Shown here one piece after another: positions 30,731 to 41,867 of a DNA stretch of 64,000 nucleotides. The stretch is taken from assembly GCF_056746865.1 (NCBI RefSeq), contig NZ_CM163382.1; one strand, 5' to 3'. Within the stretch, counting starts at the first letter, position 1. Each line of letters begins with the position of its first letter. The notes below the pieces were generated by a model. It was given only the letters and a program-made list of their open reading frames with translations, was not told the DNA's origin and ran no database searches. Made by a program: the position numbers and the translations under genes.

Positions 30731-30815
30731 AGATGTACCTCAGACCCTACACTTCGCGCTCCTGTTACAGCACGTAACATAGTTTGTATAAAAATAAATC
30801 ATTGAGGTTATGGTC

Positions 30816-32156
30816 ATGAGCCAGAAAACCCTGTTTACAAAGTCTGCTCTCGCAGTCGCAGTGGCACTTATCTCCACCCAGGCCTGGTCGGCAGGCTTTC
30901 AGTTAAACGAATTTTCTTCCTCTGGCCTGGGCCGGGCTTATTCAGGGGAAGGTGCAATTGCCGATGATGCAGGTAACGTTAGCCGTAACCCCGCATTGAT
31001 TACCATGTTTGACCGCCCGACATTTTCTGCGGGTGCGGTTTATATTGACCCGGATGTAAATATCAGCGGAACGTCTCCATCTGGTCGTAGCCTGAAAGCC
31101 GATAACATCGCGCCTACGGCATGGGTTCCGAACATGCACTTTGTTGCACCGATTAACGACCAATTTGGTTGGGGCGCTTCTATTACCTCTAACTATGGCC
31201 TGGCAACAGAGTTTAACGATACTTATGCAGGCGGCTCTGTCGGGGGTACAACCGACCTTGAAACCATGAACCTGAACTTAAGCGGTGCGTATCGCTTAAA
31301 TAATGCATGGAGCTTTGGTCTTGGTTTCAACGCCGTCTACGCTCGCGCGAAGATTGAACGTTTCGCAGGCGATCTGGGGCAGCTGGTTGCCGGTCAGATC
31401 ATGCAATCTCCTGCCGGGCAGACTCCTCAAGGGCAAGCGTTGGCAGCTACCGCCAACGGTATCGACAGTAATACCAAAATCGCTCATCTGAACGGTAACC
31501 AGTGGGGCTTTGGCTGGAACGCCGGTATCCTGTATGAACTGGATAAAAATAACCGCTATGCACTGACCTACCGTTCTGAAGTGAAAATTGACTTCAAAGG
31601 TAACTACAGCAGCGATCTTAATCGTGCGTTTAATAACTACGGTTTACCAATACCTACCGCGACAGGTGGCGCAACGCAATCGGGTTATCTGACGCTGAAC
31701 CTGCCTGAAATGTGGGAAGTGTCGGGTTATAACCGTGTTGATCCGCAGTGGGCAATTCACTATAGCCTGGCTTACACCAGTTGGAGTCAGTTCCAGCAGC
31801 TAAAAGCAACCTCAACGAGTGGCGACACGCTGTTCCAGAAACATGAAGGCTTTAAAGATGCTTACCGCATCGCGTTGGGTACCACTTATTACTACGATGA
31901 TAACTGGACCTTCCGTACCGGTATCGCCTTTGATGACAGCCCAGTTCCGGCACAGAATCGTTCTATCTCCATTCCGGACCAGGACCGTTTCTGGCTGAGT
32001 GCAGGTACGACTTACGCATTTAATAAAGATGCTTCAGTCGATGTTGGTGTTTCTTATATGCACGGTCAGAGCGTGAAAATTAACGAAGGCCCATACCAGT
32101 TCGAGTCTGAAGGTAAAGCCTGGCTGTTCGGTACTAACTTTAACTACGCGTTCTGA
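30816..32156 (+). CDS. fadL: Long-chain fatty acid outer-membrane transporter FadL
   Basis: ORF contains [42 protein letters not shown]; ends ...NFNYAF (beta-barrel C-terminal Phe). Confidence 0.95.
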
Positions 32157-32198: not shown

Positions 32199-32522
32199 TT
32201 TAACTCCCACACTTCAACGAAAGTTGTTTCCTCATTGCTTGCCTCCTGAGTTTTGCAAACAGCCTGATGGTAGCTTGCCCTTTCAAATCATTAAGTGGTA
32301 TCCACAGACAAACCTGAAGGGAAAGGCATATTTTCAGGCGTTCTGCTCGTCTTTCTCAAAGAGTTTACTTTTCTGAATTTCCAGGATACTCAAACCACCC
32401 TGGCTATTGTGCGCTCATACACTCAAATTAAAGATAGGGTCTAAATAAATGAGCGTTTTTTGATAGTCTATTTTATTAGGTAATATATATTTGTAACAAA
32501 TCAATCAACATGGAATAAAATC

Positions 32523-33770
32523 ATGCTACCATCTATTTCAATCAACAATACCAGCGCAGCTTACACAGAATCCATCAATGAAAATAACAATGATGAAGTT
32601 AATAGATTAGTACAAGAGCTCAAAAACCTTTTTAATGGTAAGCAAGGAATAAGCACCTGTGTTAAACATCTACTTGCGCTTATAAAAAACGCCATACGAG
32701 GAAACGACAATCCTGATAGATTTAATATTAATAATTCCTCAGTTACTTATATTGATATTGGCTCCAATGATACAGACCACATTACTATTGGTATCGATAA
32801 CCAAGAAACAATAAAATTACTTGCGAGCTATAAAGACAAAGAACTCGTCCGTGCTATCATTAATGACAACATAGTTGAGAAGACTCATGATGATATAAAT
32901 AATGCTGACTTTACTGATGGTAGTATCGTTGTTAGTGGTAATAAGGGTGCTATTGACTCCAATGATACAGCCGATATTACTAGTGGTATCTATAATCAAG
33001 AACCAATAAAATCACCTACGAACGATGAAAACAAAAAAGTCGGCCAAACCATCATCCATGAAAATGTAGTAGAGAATACTCATGATATCAATAACAAGGA
33101 AATGATCTTCAGCGCATTAAAAGAAATATATGATGGAGATCCTGGTTTTATCTTCGATAAGATATCACAAAAACTCAGACATACGATAACGGAATTTGAT
33201 GAGAATGGGAAAAGCGAACCAACGGACTTATTTACCTGGTACGGTAAAGATAAAAAAGGCGATTCTCTCGCTATTGTAATTAAAAATAAAAACGGAAATG
33301 ATTACTTATCTCTCGGTTACTATGATCAGGACGACTACCACATTCAAAGAGGAATTCGTATTAATGGTGATAGTCTCACCCAATATTGTAGTGAAAAAGC
33401 CAGGAATGCTTCAGCGTGGTTTGAAAGCAGTAAAGCTATCATGGCAGAATCATTTGCAACAGGTTCCGATCATCAGGTTGTAAACGAGCTCAACGGGGAA
33501 AGACTGAGAGAGCCAAACGAAGTTTTTAAACGTTTAGGTCGAGCAATAAGATATAATTTTCAAGTAGACGATGCAAAATTTAGACGCGATAATGTAAAAG
33601 AAATAATTTCTACTTTAGTCGATAACGAAGTTGACCGTTCTCAAAATAAATATGACCACTTTAAGGAAATCGAAGATAAAGTTGAAAAAAGGCTTCAAAA
33701 TCGCCAGGCTAAATATCAAAATGAAATTAATCAACTATCTGCATTGGGTGTTAATTTTGATGATAATTAA
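32523..33770 (+). CDS. yfdF: Uncharacterized AT-rich protein YfdF-like, with internal ~65-aa tandem duplication
   Basis: 415-aa ORF MLPSISINNTSAAYTESINENNNDE; Asn/Asp/Lys/Ile-rich and low GC; sits between fadL and mlaA as yfdF does in E. coli. Confidence 0.7.
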   Translation: MLPSISINNTSAAYTESINENNNDEVNRLVQELKNLFNGKQGISTCVKHLLALIKNAIRGNDNPDRFNINNSSVTYIDIGSNDTDHITIGIDNQETIKLLASYKDKELVRAIINDNIVEKTHDDINNADFTDGSIVVSGNKGAIDSNDTADITSGIYNQEPIKSPTNDENKKVGQTIIHENVVENTHDINNKEMIFSALKEIYDGDPGFIFDKISQKLRHTITEFDENGKSEPTDLFTWYGKDKKGDSLAIVIKNKNGNDYLSLGYYDQDDYHIQRGIRINGDSLTQYCSEKARNASAWFESSKAIMAESFATGSDHQVVNELNGERLREPNEVFKRLGRAIRYNFQVDDAKFRRDNVKEIISTLVDNEVDRSQNKYDHFKEIEDKVEKRLQNRQAKYQNEINQLSALGVNFDDN

Positions 33771-33909
33771 AATTGTCCAGTTTTTTTGATTTTTCAACGC
33801 CTGAATATCGGAAATAGTCAGTGACGAACATCAGTATTTTTACATAATTATGTTCAGGTCATTGTCGGTTTATCTTCTTTTACTTGGGGTAATTGAGGGA
33901 TAACAACAA

Positions 33910-33942
33910 AAAAGGTGAGTTTTGTGACTCACCTTTTTTATT
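33910..33942. terminator. Bidirectional rho-independent terminator between yfdF and mlaA
   Basis: AAGGTGAGT-TTTGTG-ACTCACCTT hairpin flanked by A-run upstream and TTTTTTATTT downstream. Confidence 0.6.
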
Positions 33943-33948
33943 TGTTTC

Positions 33949-34704
33949 TTATTCAGAATCGATATCTTTTAAATCATCCTGAATCGCTTGCGCGTTCGGA
34001 TTTTCCTGCGGTTTGAGTTCGCCGCCATTAGCGATGAAATCATGACGCTGGAAGTACGCTTCGCGCACCATAATATAAGGATCGGACGACTGACGCAGCA
34101 GACCATCGGAATCCAGCAGCTGTGCGCGGGTTTCGATCCCTTCAAGCGTCCATTTACCCACAGACATCGGCCAGGTCAGCCAGGAAAGAACCGGGTAAAG
34201 ACCATCCGCCATATCACCACCGTCATCACGCAGCGTGAAGCTACCGTAGAACGGTAACTGAACGTATGGCCCATAACCCACACCATAATGACCAAGCGTA
34301 CTACCGAAGCGGTGAGGTTCAGTCCGTTGCAGTTTCGGGTTCGCCATCCCTGCAACATCAATAAAGCCGCCCATCCCCAAAATGGTGTTCAGGAAAAAGC
34401 GGGTAAAGTGGACCATCCCCTGATAAGGGTCGCCCTGCAAGAAGTAGTTAACCATCACCGCAGGTTCTTCAAGGTTGCCAGTAAAGTTGCTCAAACCGTT
34501 ACGCGCCGGTTGCGGAACATAATCACGCCAGGCGACAGCGACCGGTCGAACAATATACGGGTCTAATACATTGAAGTTGAAGTTGTACATGGTGCGGTTG
34601 AACCCTTCTAACGGGTCAGAACGCCCTTGCTGATCTGTACCGGAACTCGCACACCCCACCAGAAGCGTAGTTCCCAGAGCAAGCGCCGACAGGCGAAGCT
34701 TCAT
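33949..34704 (-). CDS. mlaA: Outer-membrane lipoprotein MlaA (VacJ)
   Basis: 251-aa ORF with lipoprotein signal MKLRLSALALGTTLLVGCAS and MlaA-family core. Confidence 0.9.
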   Translation of the reverse strand: MKLRLSALALGTTLLVGCASSGTDQQGRSDPLEGFNRTMYNFNFNVLDPYIVRPVAVAWRDYVPQPARNGLSNFTGNLEEPAVMVNYFLQGDPYQGMVHFTRFFLNTILGMGGFIDVAGMANPKLQRTEPHRFGSTLGHYGVGYGPYVQLPFYGSFTLRDDGGDMADGLYPVLSWLTWPMSVGKWTLEGIETRAQLLDSDGLLRQSSDPYIMVREAYFQRHDFIANGGELKPQENPNAQAIQDDLKDIDSE

Positions 34705-36005: not shown

Positions 36006-36080
36006 GTCCTCTTAGTTAAATGGATATAACGAGCCCCTCCTAAGGGCTAATTGCAGGTTCGATTCCTGCAGGGGACACCA
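36006..36080 (+). tRNA. argW: tRNA-Arg (anticodon CCU)
   Basis: GTCCTCTTAGTTAAATGGATATAACGAGCCCCTCCTAAGGGCTAATTGCAGGTTCGATTCCTGCAGGGGACACCA: 75 nt, cloverleaf-compatible, CCU anticodon in the loop, 3-prime CCA. Confidence 0.9.
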
Positions 36081-36521
36081 GATACCCTTCTAACAATATC
36101 TACCTTCACCCCGTAAAAGATGGGTTTGGCAGCACACTTGCCCTATATCTACTCATTTTTACTGCAACAGGTTGAAATCTCAGCACTGTCAGAAAGCGCT
36201 GATGACTAAACAGCCCTGGGCCGGGCGATGTAACCATCATACAGAATCCTGATAGCGAAATATGGCGTGACTCGATACTTCACTCTGCAATGCGTTCCTT
36301 GATGAATTCGCAGGCCCGTGATACACGGGACAAGTCGCTGAATGACGACAATGTCCTGGAAATCAGCGAACCGCGTATCCGGAGTACATTTGAGCGACTG
36401 TACCAGAACATGAATGAGGCGTTTGGATTAGGTGATTATTAGTTGGGCTAAGCATTTTTGTATTATTATTTTCCGGTTGAGGGATATGGAGATATCGACA
36501 ACAACCGGAAAAAGTTTACGT

Positions 36522-37769
36522 CTATATTGCTGAAGGTACAGGCGTTTCCATAACTATTTGCTCGCGTTTTTTACTCAGGAAGAAAATGCCAAATAGCAAC
36601 ATCAGGCAGACAATACCCGAAATTGCGAAGAAAACTGTCTGGTAGCCTGCGTGGTCAAAGAGTATCCCAGTCGGCGTTGAAAGCAGCACAATCCCAAGCG
36701 AACTGGCAATTTGAAAACCAATCAGAAAGATCGTCGACGACAGGCGCTTATCAAAGTTTGCCACGCTGTATTTGAAGACGGATATGACACAAAGTGGAAC
36801 CTCAATGGCATGTAACAGCTTCACTAATGAAATAATCCAGGGGTTAACGAACAACGCGCAGGAAAGGATACGCAACGCCATAATCACAACACCGATAAGT
36901 AATGCATTTTTTGGCCCTACCCGATTCACAAAGAAAGGAATAATCGCCATGCACAGCGCTTCGAGTACCACCTGGAATGAGTTGAGATAACCATACAGGC
37001 GCGTTCCTACATCGTGTGATTCGAATAAACCTGCATAAAAGACAGGAAAGAGTTGTTGATCAAAAATGTTATAGAAAGACCACGTCCCCACAATAAATAT
37101 GACAAAAACCCAGAAGTTTCGATCCTTGAAAACTGCGATAAAATCCTCTTTTTTTACCCCTCCCGCATCCGCCGCTACACACTGGTGACCCTTATCTTTA
37201 AAACGCATGTTGATCATCATAAATACAGCGCCAAATAGCGAGACCAGCCAGAAGTTGATATGGGGACTGATACTAAAAAATATGCCGGCAAAGAACGCGC
37301 CAATAGCATAGCCAAAAGATCCCCAGGCGCGCGCTGTTCCATATTCGAAATGAAAATTTCGCGCCATTTTTTCAGTGAAGCTGTCAAGCAAACCACATCC
37401 CGCCAGATACCCCAGGCCAAAAAAGAGCGCCCCCAGAATTAGACCTACAGAAAAATTGCTTTGCAGTAACGGTTCATAAACGTAAATCATAAACGGTCCG
37501 GTCAAGACCAGAATGAAACTCATACACCAGATGAGCGGTTTCTTCAGACCGAGTTTATCCTGAACGATGCCGTAGAACATCATAAATAGAATGCTGGTAA
37601 ACTGGTTGACCGAATAAAGTGTACCTAATTCCGTCCCTGTTAATCCTAGATGTCCTTTCAGCCAAATAGCGTATAACGACCACCACAGCGACCAGGAAAT
37701 AAAAAAGAGAAATGAGTAACTGGATGCAAAACGATAGTACGCATTTCTGAATGGAATATTCAGTGCCAT
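36522..37769 (-). CDS. cscB: Sucrose:H+ symporter (oligosaccharide:H+ symporter family, MFS) CscB
   Basis: 415-aa 12-TM ORF MALNIPFRNAYYRFASSYSFLFFISWSLWWSLYAIWLKGHLGL, LacY-like sucrose permease. Confidence 0.88.
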   Translation of the reverse strand: MALNIPFRNAYYRFASSYSFLFFISWSLWWSLYAIWLKGHLGLTGTELGTLYSVNQFTSILFMMFYGIVQDKLGLKKPLIWCMSFILVLTGPFMIYVYEPLLQSNFSVGLILGALFFGLGYLAGCGLLDSFTEKMARNFHFEYGTARAWGSFGYAIGAFFAGIFFSISPHINFWLVSLFGAVFMMINMRFKDKGHQCVAADAGGVKKEDFIAVFKDRNFWVFVIFIVGTWSFYNIFDQQLFPVFYAGLFESHDVGTRLYGYLNSFQVVLEALCMAIIPFFVNRVGPKNALLIGVVIMALRILSCALFVNPWIISLVKLLHAIEVPLCVISVFKYSVANFDKRLSSTIFLIGFQIASSLGIVLLSTPTGILFDHAGYQTVFFAISGIVCLMLLFGIFFLSKKREQIVMETPVPSAI

Positions 37770-37830
37770 AATTACCTGCCCGTCGTTAAAAAATTCATGT
37801 CCTATTTAGAGATAAGAGCGGCCTCGCCGT

Positions 37831-38754
37831 TTACTTCTCACTTTCCAGTTCTTGTCGACATGGCAGCGCTGTCATTGCCCCTTTCGCTGTTACTGCAAGC
37901 GCTCCGCAACGTTGAGCGAGATCGATAATTCGTCGCATTTCTCTCTCATCTGTAGATAATCCCGAAGAGGACAGACCTGTGAGTAACCCGGCAACGAACG
38001 CATCTCCCGCCCCAGTGCTATCGACACAATTCACAGACATTCCAGCAAAATGGTGGACTTGTCCTCGATAACAGACCACCACCCCTTCTGCACCTTTAGT
38101 CACCAACAGCATGGCGATCTCATAATCTTTTGCCAGGGCGCATATATCCCGATCGTTCTGTGTTTTTCCACTGATAAGTCGCCATTCTTCTTCCGAGAGC
38201 TTGACGACATCCGCCAGTTGTAGCGCCTGCCGCAAACACAAGCGGAGCAAATGCTCGTCTTGCCATAGATCTTCACGAATATTGGGATCGAAGCTGACAA
38301 AACCTCCGGCATGCCGGATCGCCGTCATCGCAGTAAATGCGCTGGTACGCGAAGGCTCGGCAGACAACGCAATTGAACAGAGATGTAACCATTCGCCATG
38401 TCGCCAGCAGGGCAAGTCTGTCGTCTCTAAAAAAAGATCGGCACTGGGGCGGACCATAAACGTAAATGAACGTTCTCCTTGATCGTTCAGATCGACAAGC
38501 ACCGTGGATGTCCGGTGCCATTCATCTTGCTTCAGATACGTGATATCGACACCCTCAGTTAGCAGCGTTCTTTGCATTAACGCACCAAAAGGATCATCAC
38601 CGACCCGACCTATAAACCCACTTGTTCCGCCTAATCTGGCGATTCCCACCGCAACGTTAGCTGGCGCGCCGCCAGGACAAGGCAGTAGCCGCCCGTCTGA
38701 TTCTGGCAAGAGATCTACGACCGCATCCCCTAAAACCCATACTTTGGCTGACAT
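37831..38754 (-). CDS. cscK: Fructokinase CscK (ribokinase/pfkB family)
   Basis: 307-aa ORF MSAKVWVLGDAVVDLLPE with pfkB signature (DSTGAGDAFVAGLL). Confidence 0.9.
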   Translation of the reverse strand: MSAKVWVLGDAVVDLLPESDGRLLPCPGGAPANVAVGIARLGGTSGFIGRVGDDPFGALMQRTLLTEGVDITYLKQDEWHRTSTVLVDLNDQGERSFTFMVRPSADLFLETTDLPCWRHGEWLHLCSIALSAEPSRTSAFTAMTAIRHAGGFVSFDPNIREDLWQDEHLLRLCLRQALQLADVVKLSEEEWRLISGKTQNDRDICALAKDYEIAMLLVTKGAEGVVVCYRGQVHHFAGMSVNCVDSTGAGDAFVAGLLTGLSSSGLSTDEREMRRIIDLAQRCGALAVTAKGAMTALPCRQELESEK

Positions 38755-38858
38755 TTTTTTCCCTTAAATTCATCTGACTTACGCATAGTGATAAACCTCT
38801 TTTTCGCAAAATCGTCATGGATTTACTAAAACATGCATATTCGATCACAAAACATCAT

Positions 38859-38936
38859 AGTTAACGTTAACATTTGTGATATTCATCGCATTTATGAAAG
38901 TAAGTGACTTTATTTTTATAAAAGTTAACGTTAACA
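38859..38936. promoter_or_regulatory. Divergent cscK/cscA promoter region with two identical palindromic 14-mers (candidate CscR operators)
   Basis: AGTTAACGTTAACA occurs at 38859-38872 and 38923-38936; each is itself palindromic (GTTAAC x2); LacI-family repressors bind such dyads. Confidence 0.5.
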
Positions 38937-38960
38937 ATTCACCAAATTTGCTTAACCAGG

Positions 38961-40403
38961 ATGATTAAAATGACGCAATCTCGATTGCATGCGGCGCAAA
39001 ACGCACTAGCAAAACTTCACGAGCGCCGAGGTAACACTTTCTATCCCCATTTTCACCTCGCGCCTCCTGCCGGGTGGATGAACGATCCAAACGGCCTGAT
39101 CTGGTTTAACGATCGTTATCACGCGTTTTATCAACATCACCCGATGAGCGAACACTGGGGGCCAATGCACTGGGGACATGCCACCAGCGACGATATGATC
39201 CACTGGCAGCATGAGCCTATTGCGCTAGCGCCAGGAGACGAGAATGACAAAGACGGATGTTTTTCAGGTAGTGCTGTCGATGACAATGGTGTCCTCTCAC
39301 TTATCTACACCGGACACGTCTGGCTCGATAGTGAAGGTAATGACGATGCAATTCGCGAAGTACAATGTCTGGCTACCAGTCGGGATGGTATTCATTTCGA
39401 GAAACAGGGTGTGATCCTCACTCCACCAGAAGGAATCATGCACTTCCGCGATCCTAAAGTGTGGCGTGAAGCCGACACATGGTGGATGGTAGTCGGGGCG
39501 AAAGACCCAGGCAACACGGGGCAGATCCTGCTTTATCGCGGCAGTTCATTGCGTGAATGGACTTTCGATCGCGTACTGGCCCACGCTGATGCGGGTGAAA
39601 GCTATATGTGGGAATGTCCGGACTTTTTCAGCCTTGGCGATCAGCATTATCTGATGTTTTCCCCGCAGGGAATGAATGCCGAGGGATACAGTTATCGAAA
39701 TCGCTTTCAAAGTGGCGTAATACCCGGAATGTGGTCGCCAGGACGACTTTTTGCACAATCCGGGCATTTTACTGAACTTGATAACGGGCATGACTTTTAT
39801 GCACCACAAAGCTTTGTAGCGAAGGATGGTCGGCGTATTGTTATCGGCTGGATGGATATGTGGGAATCGCCAATGCCCTCAAAACGTGAAGGCTGGGCAG
39901 GCTGCATGACGCTGGCGCGCGAGCTATCAGAGAGCAATGGCAAACTCCTACAACGCCCGGTACACGAAGCTGAGTCGTTACGCCAGCAGCATCAATCTAT
40001 CTCTCCCCGCACAATCAGCAATAAATATGTTTTGCAGGAAAACGCGCAAGCAGTTGAGATTCAGTTGCAGTGGGAGCTGAAGAACAGTGATGCCGAACAT
40101 TACGGATTACAACTCGGCACAGGAATGCGGCTGTATATTGATAACCAATCTGAGCGACTTGTTTTGTGGCGATATTACCCACACGAGAATTTAGACGGCT
40201 ACCGTAGTATTCCCCTCCCGCAGGGTGACACGCTCGCCCTAAGGATATTTATCGATACATCATCCGTGGAAGTATTTATTAACGACGGGGAAACGGTGAT
40301 GAGTAGCCGAATCTATCCGCAGCCAGAAGAACGGGAACTGTCGCTCTATGCCTCCCACGGAGTGGCTGTGCTGCAACATGGAGCACTCTGGCAACTGGGT
40401 TAA
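38961..40403 (+). CDS. cscA: Sucrose-6-phosphate hydrolase / invertase CscA (GH32)
   Basis: 480-aa ORF with GH32 motifs (WMNDPNG, RDP, EC); alternative start at ATG 38970 (MTQSRLHAA) gives 477 aa. Confidence 0.9.
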   Translation: MIKMTQSRLHAAQNALAKLHERRGNTFYPHFHLAPPAGWMNDPNGLIWFNDRYHAFYQHHPMSEHWGPMHWGHATSDDMIHWQHEPIALAPGDENDKDGCFSGSAVDDNGVLSLIYTGHVWLDSEGNDDAIREVQCLATSRDGIHFEKQGVILTPPEGIMHFRDPKVWREADTWWMVVGAKDPGNTGQILLYRGSSLREWTFDRVLAHADAGESYMWECPDFFSLGDQHYLMFSPQGMNAEGYSYRNRFQSGVIPGMWSPGRLFAQSGHFTELDNGHDFYAPQSFVAKDGRRIVIGWMDMWESPMPSKREGWAGCMTLARELSESNGKLLQRPVHEAESLRQQHQSISPRTISNKYVLQENAQAVEIQLQWELKNSDAEHYGLQLGTGMRLYIDNQSERLVLWRYYPHENLDGYRSIPLPQGDTLALRIFIDTSSVEVFINDGETVMSSRIYPQPEERELSLYASHGVAVLQHGALWQLG

Positions 40404-40410
40404 CATAATA

Positions 40411-41406
40411 TCAGGTGGAACAACGGATCAACAGCGGGCAAGGGATCCGCGTCACTCTTCCCCCTTCACGACCTTCAATAATATGCAATGCAGCTTCCCG
40501 CCCGATAATGTCATGTGGAAGCTGAATTGTGGTCAGCGGCGGTAAAAACAGATGCCCGACGCCAACCAGATTATCAAAGCCCATTACGGCGACATCCTGC
40601 GGGATACGTACCCCCTTCGCCAGGAGAACCTGATAAGCGACAAAGGCTGCGCGATCGTTACCACATATCAGAACATCAAAATCTGGTTTGCCAGATTTGA
40701 AGTGGTCATTGAGTAAACTTGCGAGATCGGTGTAGTGATCATCACCTGTTGCCATGTGAAATTGTTTCACCTCAGCCAGATCTCGTCCAGCATCACGCCA
40801 GGCCTGCTCAAATCCCTGCCGACGATACCCTGTTGCCAACGCACTTTCCGGTAGCCAGAAGCATAACGGTTGACGATAGCCCGCCGCGAGCAAATGCTGT
40901 GTTGATTCATATTGTGCAGTGTAATCATCAGGGATATAACTGGGTAACGCTGGGTCATCCGCAACACAGTTCGCCAATACAATATTTTCACCATACAGAG
41001 ACTCAGGCAGCGTGATATGTCGCAGCCCCATTGTAGTATAGATAATGCCATCCGGACGGTGGGCAAGCAGCTGACGTGCCGCGCGGGCAGCGTCATCTTC
41101 AGAAAAAATATTGATTAAAAAACTATTCCAGCCGAACTCGCTGGCGGTTTGCTCAATGGCAAGCAGAATATCAACAGAGAAAGGAGTGGTAGCCGTGTCC
41201 TGCGCCAGCACGGCGAGAGTCGACGGCTTACGTCCTTGAGCGCGCATCTTACGGGCGGAAAGATCAGGAACATAATTCAGGGTCTGGATTGCCTGCAATA
41301 CGCGGTTACGCGTTGCAGGACGCACAGATTCTGCATTATGCATCACCCGGGAGACTGTCATCATCGACACTCCCGCCAGGCGTGCGACATCCTTTAATGA
41401 AGCCAT
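40411..41406 (-). CDS. cscR: LacI-family sucrose operon repressor CscR
   Basis: ORF 40411..41604 contains MASLKDVARLAGVSMMTVSRVMHN (LacI HTH); start trimmed to ATG 41406 (331 aa). Confidence 0.88.
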   Translation of the reverse strand: MASLKDVARLAGVSMMTVSRVMHNAESVRPATRNRVLQAIQTLNYVPDLSARKMRAQGRKPSTLAVLAQDTATTPFSVDILLAIEQTASEFGWNSFLINIFSEDDAARAARQLLAHRPDGIIYTTMGLRHITLPESLYGENIVLANCVADDPALPSYIPDDYTAQYESTQHLLAAGYRQPLCFWLPESALATGYRRQGFEQAWRDAGRDLAEVKQFHMATGDDHYTDLASLLNDHFKSGKPDFDVLICGNDRAAFVAYQVLLAKGVRIPQDVAVMGFDNLVGVGHLFLPPLTTIQLPHDIIGREAALHIIEGREGGRVTRIPCPLLIRCST

Positions 41407-41636
41407 ACCCAAGCCGTTTGCCGTAAAACGGGCACTGTAGCAGAAACAGACGTCACTGGCGAGATCCAACGATATTCTCGACGCCCTATCACCCGACACG
41501 GCAATACAATAAAAAATAACAATAATTCCCGGACAATTGTACCCAATTCCGCCTCTGTTCTCGCCAACGAGTAACCATGTAGGCAAGTAGGTAAAACATG
41601 CCAACTGGCATCGCCAATCTGGAGAAGAAAATATAA

Positions 41637-41867
41637 ATATGGATCATTGTGCTGGCGCTGTATCCCGACATCAGCCCGGAAATTTTTACGATTGATATCG
41701 GTTCAAGTGCAATTGGCTGCACGATCGTTACGGACTCGCTTTTCTGGCTGGTGAAGCAATATTGCGGCGCTACGCTCAATGAAACATTTAAATACTATAC
41801 GACAGCGACATTTATCGCTTCAGTCGTCGCTCTGGCGGGCACATTCCTGCTGTCATTTATCATCTAA
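41637..41867 (+). pseudogene. dsdX: 3-prime remnant of D-serine permease gene dsdX (GntP family), truncated by the csc insertion
   Basis: Frame open from 41637 with no upstream coding continuation; hydrophobic C-terminal sequence ...[49 protein letters not shown]... matches my recollection of the DsdX C-terminus; directly upstream of dsdA. Confidence 0.65.

Follow-up and report, generated by a model that had tools for sequence, protein, structure and literature searches.

The gene yfdF occupies positions 32523..33770 (+ strand) of a 64,000-nucleotide stretch of contig NZ_CM163382.1 (RefSeq assembly GCF_056746865.1), referred to here as the window. Its open reading frame (ORF) of 415 aa holds an old, diverged, in-frame tandem duplication with a period of 195 bp. 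Comparison with alleles of other Escherichia coli strains indicated that the duplication is very likely ancient and that the two-unit form would be ancestral to the extant alleles. The one-unit form of K-12 would accordingly be a derivative that lost 195 bp, in a gene drifting under weak constraint. The gene and its length polymorphism have already been published. The present analysis adds the tandem-unit nature of the polymorphic segment, the reading of the reference form as a deleted one, the exact junction and the population frequencies.

The tandem repeat and the K-12-type junction

The initial annotation had proposed an internal tandem duplication of about 195 bp, and the repeat was recovered by three methods. 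A direct-repeat search gave one direct-repeat family, with copies of 139 nt at 32753-32891 and 32948-33086 that shared 78% identity at a spacing of exactly 195 bp. Local alignment of the DNA (32757-32891 vs 32952-33086) showed 106/135 identical positions and a score of 125, with shuffles at 19.1 +/- 2.3 and a maximum of 30. In the protein alignment, aa 79-~127 matched aa 144-~191 with a score of 114. Shuffled sequences scored 31.7 +/- 5.7 with a maximum of 57, and 0/1000 reached 114. Detectable similarity was limited to approximately 45-49 aa per 65-aa period. The tails of the units as first delimited, aa 128-143 and 192-208, showed no detectable similarity in the protein alignment. Tandem Repeats Finder did not report the repeat in the window, which was expected because only two copies were present and these were highly diverged. 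No third copy of the unit, even a degenerate one, was found elsewhere in the YfdF protein.

A better phasing was obtained with an INN motif, followed by the unit and the 9-bp sequence ACTCATGAT. INN-encoding 9-mers were located at 32727, 32895 and 33087. Unit 1, the reference copy of the direct-repeat search, spans 32753..32891 (+, aa ~78-123) and lies between the first INN motif and the first copy of ACTCATGAT (32883..32891, +), which is included at its end. After the second INN motif, a linker beginning with ADFTDGSIVVSGNK (32904..32947, +) leads to unit 2 at 32948..33086 (+, aa ~143-188), the more degenerate copy. This unit ends in the second copy of ACTCATGAT (33078..33086, +) and is followed by the third INN motif. 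The linker had no detectable counterpart 3' of unit 2 and was an indel hot spot among alleles. The motifs SNDTD, NQEPIK and ENxVExTHD were conserved in both units across alleles. The duplicated segment of approximately 56-65 codons belongs to the poorly constrained N-terminal half of the protein and falls between the putative 20-residue type III secretion signal and the C-terminal region.

The window protein was aligned with six alleles from complete genomes. As initially suggested, it carries one unit more than K-12 YfdF. The K-12-type protein (352 aa) lacked exactly window aa 121-185, i.e. 65 aa or one period, and had two extra residues near the C-terminus, which accounts for the length difference (415 - 65 + 2 = 352). 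On the DNA level, the absent 195-bp segment was assigned to 32883..33077 (+) from the protein alignment and the DNA junction, or equally to 32892-33086 given the 9-bp microhomology. The K-12 sequence ran as unit 1 up to GAGAAG and ACTCATGAT, and then with ATCAATAAC, the continuation of unit 2. Past the junction, the sequence ATCAATAACAAGGAAATG was identical to the window sequence following unit 2. The deletion end points therefore fall inside the 9 bp of identity between both copies. Such an identity at the junction is the signature of slipped-strand or short-homology recombination, and this mechanism may be proposed from the junction. The 352-aa form of the K-12-type alleles would have arisen once, by a 195-bp deletion that joined the two ACTCATGAT copies. 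For Shigella flexneri M90T, the short form was deduced solely from the published size. That short direct repeats give rise to deletions, through replication slippage or short-homology recombination, is an established mechanism. The yfdF case matches it in the removal of one exact period and in end points within 9 bp common to both copies, and shows no unusual difference from it as far as a mechanism read from the junction allows.

The frequency of both forms was determined in 5426 complete E. coli genomes. A DNA match to yfdF was present in 4294 of these, and the gene was absent from approximately 1130. Two units, called when at least 80% of the 195-bp segment deleted in K-12 was covered, were found in 1235 genomes. 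The K-12-type junction, searched with a 59-nt probe at E <= 1e-12, was found in 3021 genomes, 2934 of them at >=99%. The two classes sum to 4256 genomes, and approximately 38 genomes held other yfdF states such as insertion sequence (IS) insertions and large deletions. No three-unit allele was detected in the set; the unit probe matched at most two places and the junction probe at most one place per genome. The number of units thus differs between strains, as initially proposed, and the orthologues do not all share one structure. With two states and one shared junction, unit number is a two-state polymorphism and not an actively varying array. The suggestion of an actively varying repeat number was therefore not supported. 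Variable number of tandem repeats (VNTR) or contingency-locus behaviour was likewise not found, since only one- and two-unit states, a single junction and copies of 77-82% identity were observed.

Two-unit alleles were present in O157:H7 and O145, and one-unit alleles in K-12, W, C41(DE3) and O111:H8. An 'internal addition' was reported in strains of phylogroups D and E (Silue & Campbell-Valois 2022, PMC9241512). An ancestral two-unit form fits this strain distribution, including the published addition. Full-length two-unit proteins measured 410-426 aa. At the head of unit 2 (window ~32960-32990; L004:2838-3010, L005:2838-3020 and L006:2838-3015 in three of the compared loci), two-unit alleles contained 0-3 extra in-frame GATATT (Asp-Ile) hexamers, and slippage-like variation was limited to these. 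In-frame linker indels of 12 bp and 9 bp occurred in other two-unit alleles. Hexamer copy number and linker indels explain the length range. None of the full-length two-unit alleles examined had lost the reading frame, either within the units or at any of the small indels. Allele L002 (2501-3559) showed two differing sites from the K-12-type allele L001 in the first ~1000 nt and 35 in the last 281 nt. In these last 281 nt, it had only five differences from L004. The 3' end of K-12 yfdF resembled allele L005.

Age of the duplication and constraint on the gene

The order of events was read from identities between units and alleles. Unit 1 was 94-100% identical between alleles on the DNA level and unit 2 was 89.5-96% identical, whereas the two units of one and the same allele shared 77-82% in every case. 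The synonymous divergence (dS) between the units was 0.29, compared with 0.06-0.15 between alleles. Because the same unit is more similar across alleles than the two units are to each other, and dS behaves likewise, the duplication predates the divergence of all sampled alleles. The single unit of K-12 was unit-1-like, with 94-96% identity to unit 1 and 80-82% to unit 2. Identities of 77-82% between the units in every allele point to an absence of homogenisation. The copies would thus have drifted apart since the duplication without gene conversion, and unit 2 would have gathered small indels, slipped GATATT hexamers and substitutions that break helices. The duplication was therefore old and not an assembly artefact, as the initial annotation had stated. 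A gain of one unit in the strain of the window, which it had implied, was not supported: the two-unit state appears ancestral, with the same unit 89-100% identical across alleles.

Constraint was estimated as the ratio of nonsynonymous to synonymous divergence (dN/dS) after Nei-Gojobori between the window allele and six others. The whole gene showed dN/dS values of 0.5-0.95. The repeat gave 0.5-1.3 from few substitutions (5-26), the N-terminal 78 codons 0.8-1.2 and the C-terminal part 0.39-0.76. Between unit 1 and unit 2, dN/dS was 0.86. For the same genome pairs at comparable dS, fadL, mlaA and yfdC had values of 0-0.07. The fadL values for L004 and L006 (dS > 1) were discarded, as the ungapped codon comparison was out of register. 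These fadL genes (L004:793-2133 and L006:795-2135) were equal in length yet out of register, suggesting compensating indels in a variable part of fadL. The gene is under greatly relaxed constraint, and positive selection is not supported by the data. The diversifying pressure proposed initially was thus replaced by relaxed constraint.

Disruption of the gene was also observed. In strain eco-241 (NZ_CP053662.1, 1588979-1591003), IS1 splits an allele otherwise 100% identical to that of the window, which stretches the match from 1248 to 2025 bp. The O157:H7 allele (L003:2501-3745) gave a match of 1245 nt with an annotated coding sequence (CDS) of 343 aa, and is frameshifted. Near-complete loss of yfdF was seen in some genomes. 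A C-terminal truncation in phylogroup E was reported, and the gene was seen as a 'fossil' in E. coli lacking pINV (Silue & Campbell-Valois 2022). Relaxed constraint and frequent disruption agree with this view.

Several points weigh against an ancestral two-unit form followed by a single deletion. No outgroup that would root the polarity independently was found among 1.84 billion representative proteins or in species-representative genomes. The polarity is read from the comparison of units within and between alleles, together with the published phylogroup distribution. Of the two units, unit 2 has the somewhat higher rate of evolution, and part of the unit divergence could reflect acceleration and not age. 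Some Shigella records (S. boydii and one S. flexneri) held two-unit proteins of 417 aa, and the distribution is not cleanly clade-bound. The alleles are recombinant mosaics; one deletion may have spread by recombination, and recurrent deletion at the 9-bp microhomology is conceivable. The repeat dN/dS values carry the small counts given above, and it is by inference that we regard the extra unit as functionally neutral.

Alternative explanations were weighed against this reading. A chance similarity in an Asn/Asp/Ile-rich, AT-rich gene would fit the low-complexity-like composition and the silence of Tandem Repeats Finder. Scores of ~14 standard deviations (protein) and ~45 standard deviations (DNA) above composition-preserving shuffles, an exact 195-bp register and a K-12 deletion of exactly one period leave it with practically no probability. 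The reference proteins of K-12 and S. flexneri M90T are short, one-unit genomes outnumber two-unit ones (3021 vs 1235), and the published wording is 'addition' (Silue & Campbell-Valois 2022). These facts would suit a one-unit, K-12-like ancestor to which a second unit was recently added by tandem duplication in the lineage of the window. New copies would, however, start identical, whereas the units share 77-82% (dS 0.29) and unit 1 differs by 0-6% among all alleles including K-12. A several-fold higher rate would be required of unit 2, synonymous sites included. Between widely differing alleles, unit 2 is orthologous at 89.5-96% identity, so that the duplication predates their split. A recent gain is therefore very unlikely. 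Frequent variation of repeat number or sequence under diversifying selection through host contact was considered because two-unit proteins range from 410 to 426 aa with hexamer slippage and small indels, the repeat dN/dS reached 1.29 in one comparison, and the orthologue is a substrate of a type III secretion system (T3SS) (Silue & Campbell-Valois 2022). Such selection was judged improbable. Only two unit-number states and one junction common to 3021 genomes were found, and copies diverged by 22% are a poor substrate for frequent unequal recombination. A dN/dS of ~0.5-1.3 on 5-26 substitutions is expected from relaxed constraint, with similar values in the N- and C-terminal parts. In addition, H-NS keeps the gene silent in E. 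coli strains without pINV (Hall et al. 2022, PMC9769918), and IS elements, frameshifts or deletion often disrupt it, as seen here and by Silue & Campbell-Valois (2022).

The units could also be functional modules that both fold and act, e.g. in host-target or chaperone-like binding, with a fully active two-unit protein and an activity tuned by copy number. The intact frame in every full-length two-unit allele examined, the three motifs kept in both units and a weakly predicted beta-beta-beta-alpha element of unit 1 speak for such a role. In unit 2, changes from Leu to Ser, Leu to Pro and Val to Gly have abolished the hydrophobic pattern of the unit 1 helix, and coil was predicted at low confidence. 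The one-unit form is secreted (Silue & Campbell-Valois 2022) and is in the majority. No homologous module was found in any other of the 1.84 billion representative proteins, and IcaT alleles have no known function. The module is thus an outside possibility. It is similarly unlikely that the two-unit protein represents the original, fully functional effector, with a module binding a host or bacterial partner, and that the one-unit form of K-12 and S. flexneri M90T is a partly crippled derivative. If this were true, it would explain the instability and weak phenotype of one-unit IcaT, and a different behaviour would be expected of the alleles with two units (phylogroups D and E, S. boydii) given a compatible type III system. 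An old duplication with a later deletion and drift remained the preferred reading.

Gene identity, protein family and regulation

Full-length similarity and synteny identify the gene as yfdF, which has been described in Shigella flexneri under the name icaT (gem1), and the initial assignment to yfdF was correct. The window protein was 87% and 90% identical on the amino acid level to two one-unit alleles, one of which is annotated as icaT in RefSeq. One-unit orthologues are named 'protein YfdF' in RefSeq and 'invasion chromosome antigen IcaT' in newer records. The gene is flanked by fadL (30810..32156, +) on one side and mlaA (33949..34704, -) on the other, followed by yfdC and tRNA-Arg(CCU). 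The position between fadL and mlaA in the order fadL-yfdF-mlaA-yfdC-tRNA-Arg was kept in the window ORFs and seven annotated loci. The G+C content of yfdF was 0.32-0.38, compared with ~0.50 in the flanks, and is low as in the YfdF/IcaT group, for which a value of ~35% was published. YfdF/IcaT was described in two studies (Silue & Campbell-Valois 2022; Hall et al. 2022). Strains of phylogroups A, B1, D and E were reported to carry the gene and those of B2 to lack it, and two Salmonella records were also mentioned (Silue & Campbell-Valois 2022). The gene is an AT-rich orphan of horizontal origin whose distribution is restricted to Shigella and E. coli outside phylogroup B2.

Searches for relatives gave few results. 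An exhaustive HMMER search of the 1.84 billion representative proteins identified only alleles or fragments of yfdF and one spurious Fn3-repeat protein. A scan of species-representative genomes gave no matches with a query of only two peptide words, and the E. coli representative of GTDB is presumably a B2 strain without yfdF. No transposase family was matched in Pfam at E<=1, and NCBIfam gave no match. A profile search of the PDB with 16 alleles (E<=1) returned no solved structure except a coiled-coil artefact. Transposase-like relatives were also absent from the representative proteins. Homology to IS256-like/DDE transposases, to which the 'T' in IcaT refers, was thus not reproduced in family, structure-profile or protein searches. 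The hidden Markov model (HMM) of PHROG family phrog_29678 (unknown function) matched aa 77-341 (32751-33545) with an E value of 2e-145. A tblastn search of 50,697 deposited phage records gave no copy of yfdF, and a phage origin was rejected because no deposited phage carried the gene. The family is probably derived from a prophage call that was over-extended into the chromosome beside the tRNA-Arg integration site. Plasmid copies were rejected as well. Five PLSDB records (NZ_CP141089.1, NZ_OL790696.1, NZ_CP134663.1, CP061244.1 and CP137936.1) were chromosomal sequences of 0.37-4.9 Mb filed as plasmid. A role in phage resistance was discarded; yfdF was listed in a preprint on transposon-directed insertion-site sequencing (TraDIS), and the knockout was like the wild type.

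Structure prediction with AlphaFold2 from a shallow allele alignment gave a predicted local distance difference test (pLDDT) score of 39 for the full length and of 43 for aa 194-415, values too poor to assign a fold. Unit 1 was modelled as beta-beta-beta-alpha with a pLDDT of ~55, a weak hint of low confidence. Unit 2 was modelled as coil with a pLDDT of ~25, also of low confidence. The predicted coil matches the Leu to Ser, Leu to Pro and Val to Gly changes of unit 2, which place Pro and Gly where unit 1 has a predicted helix.

In S. flexneri, residues 1-20 of IcaT are necessary and sufficient for secretion by the type III secretion apparatus (T3SA), independently of a chaperone, and this was shown for the one-unit protein (Silue & Campbell-Valois 2022). 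Codons 1-20 of the window gene (32523..32582, +) would accordingly encode a putative N-terminal type III secretion signal by homology to IcaT. Of its residues, 19/20 were identical to the K-12-type, the difference being P15T. The initial annotation had suggested a surface or host-interaction protein. The secretion of one-unit Shigella IcaT as a type III substrate (Silue & Campbell-Valois 2022) supports a part of this; it is no surface protein, however, and has no known host target. No biochemical function of IcaT was assigned in the later literature searched.

The gene icaT is silenced by H-NS in Shigella and E. coli (Hall et al. 2022). It is switched on by MxiE/IpgC, and K-12-type as well as O157-type promoters were activatable by MxiE and IpgC (Silue & Campbell-Valois 2022). 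The published experiments on regulation and secretion all used the one-unit form, with expression only for the O157 allele. In the window promoter, no site matched the MxiE box consensus GTATCGTTTTTTTANAG at <=3 mismatches. A 17-mer at 32450..32466 (+), TGAGCGTTTTTTGATAG, matched at 13/17 positions, i.e. with four mismatches. It was invariant in 7/7 aligned alleles, including K-12-type and O157-type promoters, and may be the MxiE box of yfdF/icaT. The promoter of the window showed 97% mean column identity to six other alleles. A C-rich tract at 32391-32400, ~125 bp upstream of the start codon, was the only variable patch in the otherwise ~97% conserved promoter region. It differed in length and interruption, with CAAACCACCC in the window, CCCCCCCCC in the K-12-type and AACCCCCCCC in L004.

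Relation to known systems and surrounding locus

The window allele and YfdF of K-12 or IcaT of S. flexneri represent one gene in one chromosomal position (fadL-yfdF-mlaA), with 87-90% identity outside the indel, similar AT-richness and a nearly invariant promoter that includes the MxiE-box-like 17-mer. Their first 20 residues agree except for P15T. The window allele differs in keeping the second diverged unit (aa 121-185) and in lacking two residues near the C-terminus. The 'internal addition' of Silue & Campbell-Valois (2022) is the same length polymorphism, which O157:H7-type alleles carry together with the C-terminal truncation. It was described there as an addition and not as a tandem copy; here it is one unit of an old duplication, the short form is attributed to a deletion at the 9-bp microhomology, and the frequency of both forms was counted.

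The effectors EspF and EspFu/TccP contain 47-residue proline-rich repeats, which are near-identical, exist at many different copy numbers and bind host ligands that have been defined. Like these, yfdF encodes in-frame tandem protein repeats of strain-variable copy number that follow the N-terminal secretion signal of a T3SS substrate. In contrast to them, yfdF has at most two copies with ~22% DNA divergence, two states, no known ligand and weak constraint.

For annotation, 'hypothetical proteins' of 410-426 aa beside fadL are full-length YfdF/IcaT alleles, and the K-12 reference would be a shortened form. Work on IcaT so far would then have used a deletion derivative. In evolutionary terms, yfdF is a tidy case of an H-NS-silenced orphan gene whose drift shows in a duplication, a deletion at a microhomology, slippage of hexamers, frameshifts and IS insertions, and no new question is opened by it. 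The finding is real but ordinary, and its significance beyond housekeeping is small.

Downstream of the gene, a terminator-like hairpin was located between the convergent yfdF and mlaA (33908..33939, +), with a 14-pair stem followed by a T run; this candidate assignment comes from agreement with the consensus alone. Beside tRNA-Arg(CCU) (36006-36080), the strain carries a csc cluster for sucrose utilisation and a truncated pseudogene of dsdX, in a region of 36006-41867 that was annotated by transfer from locus L007. This locus differed from the window at 2/25,248 positions. In other strains, the same tRNA-Arg(CCU) site held dsdC/dsdX or a prophage integrase instead of the csc cluster.

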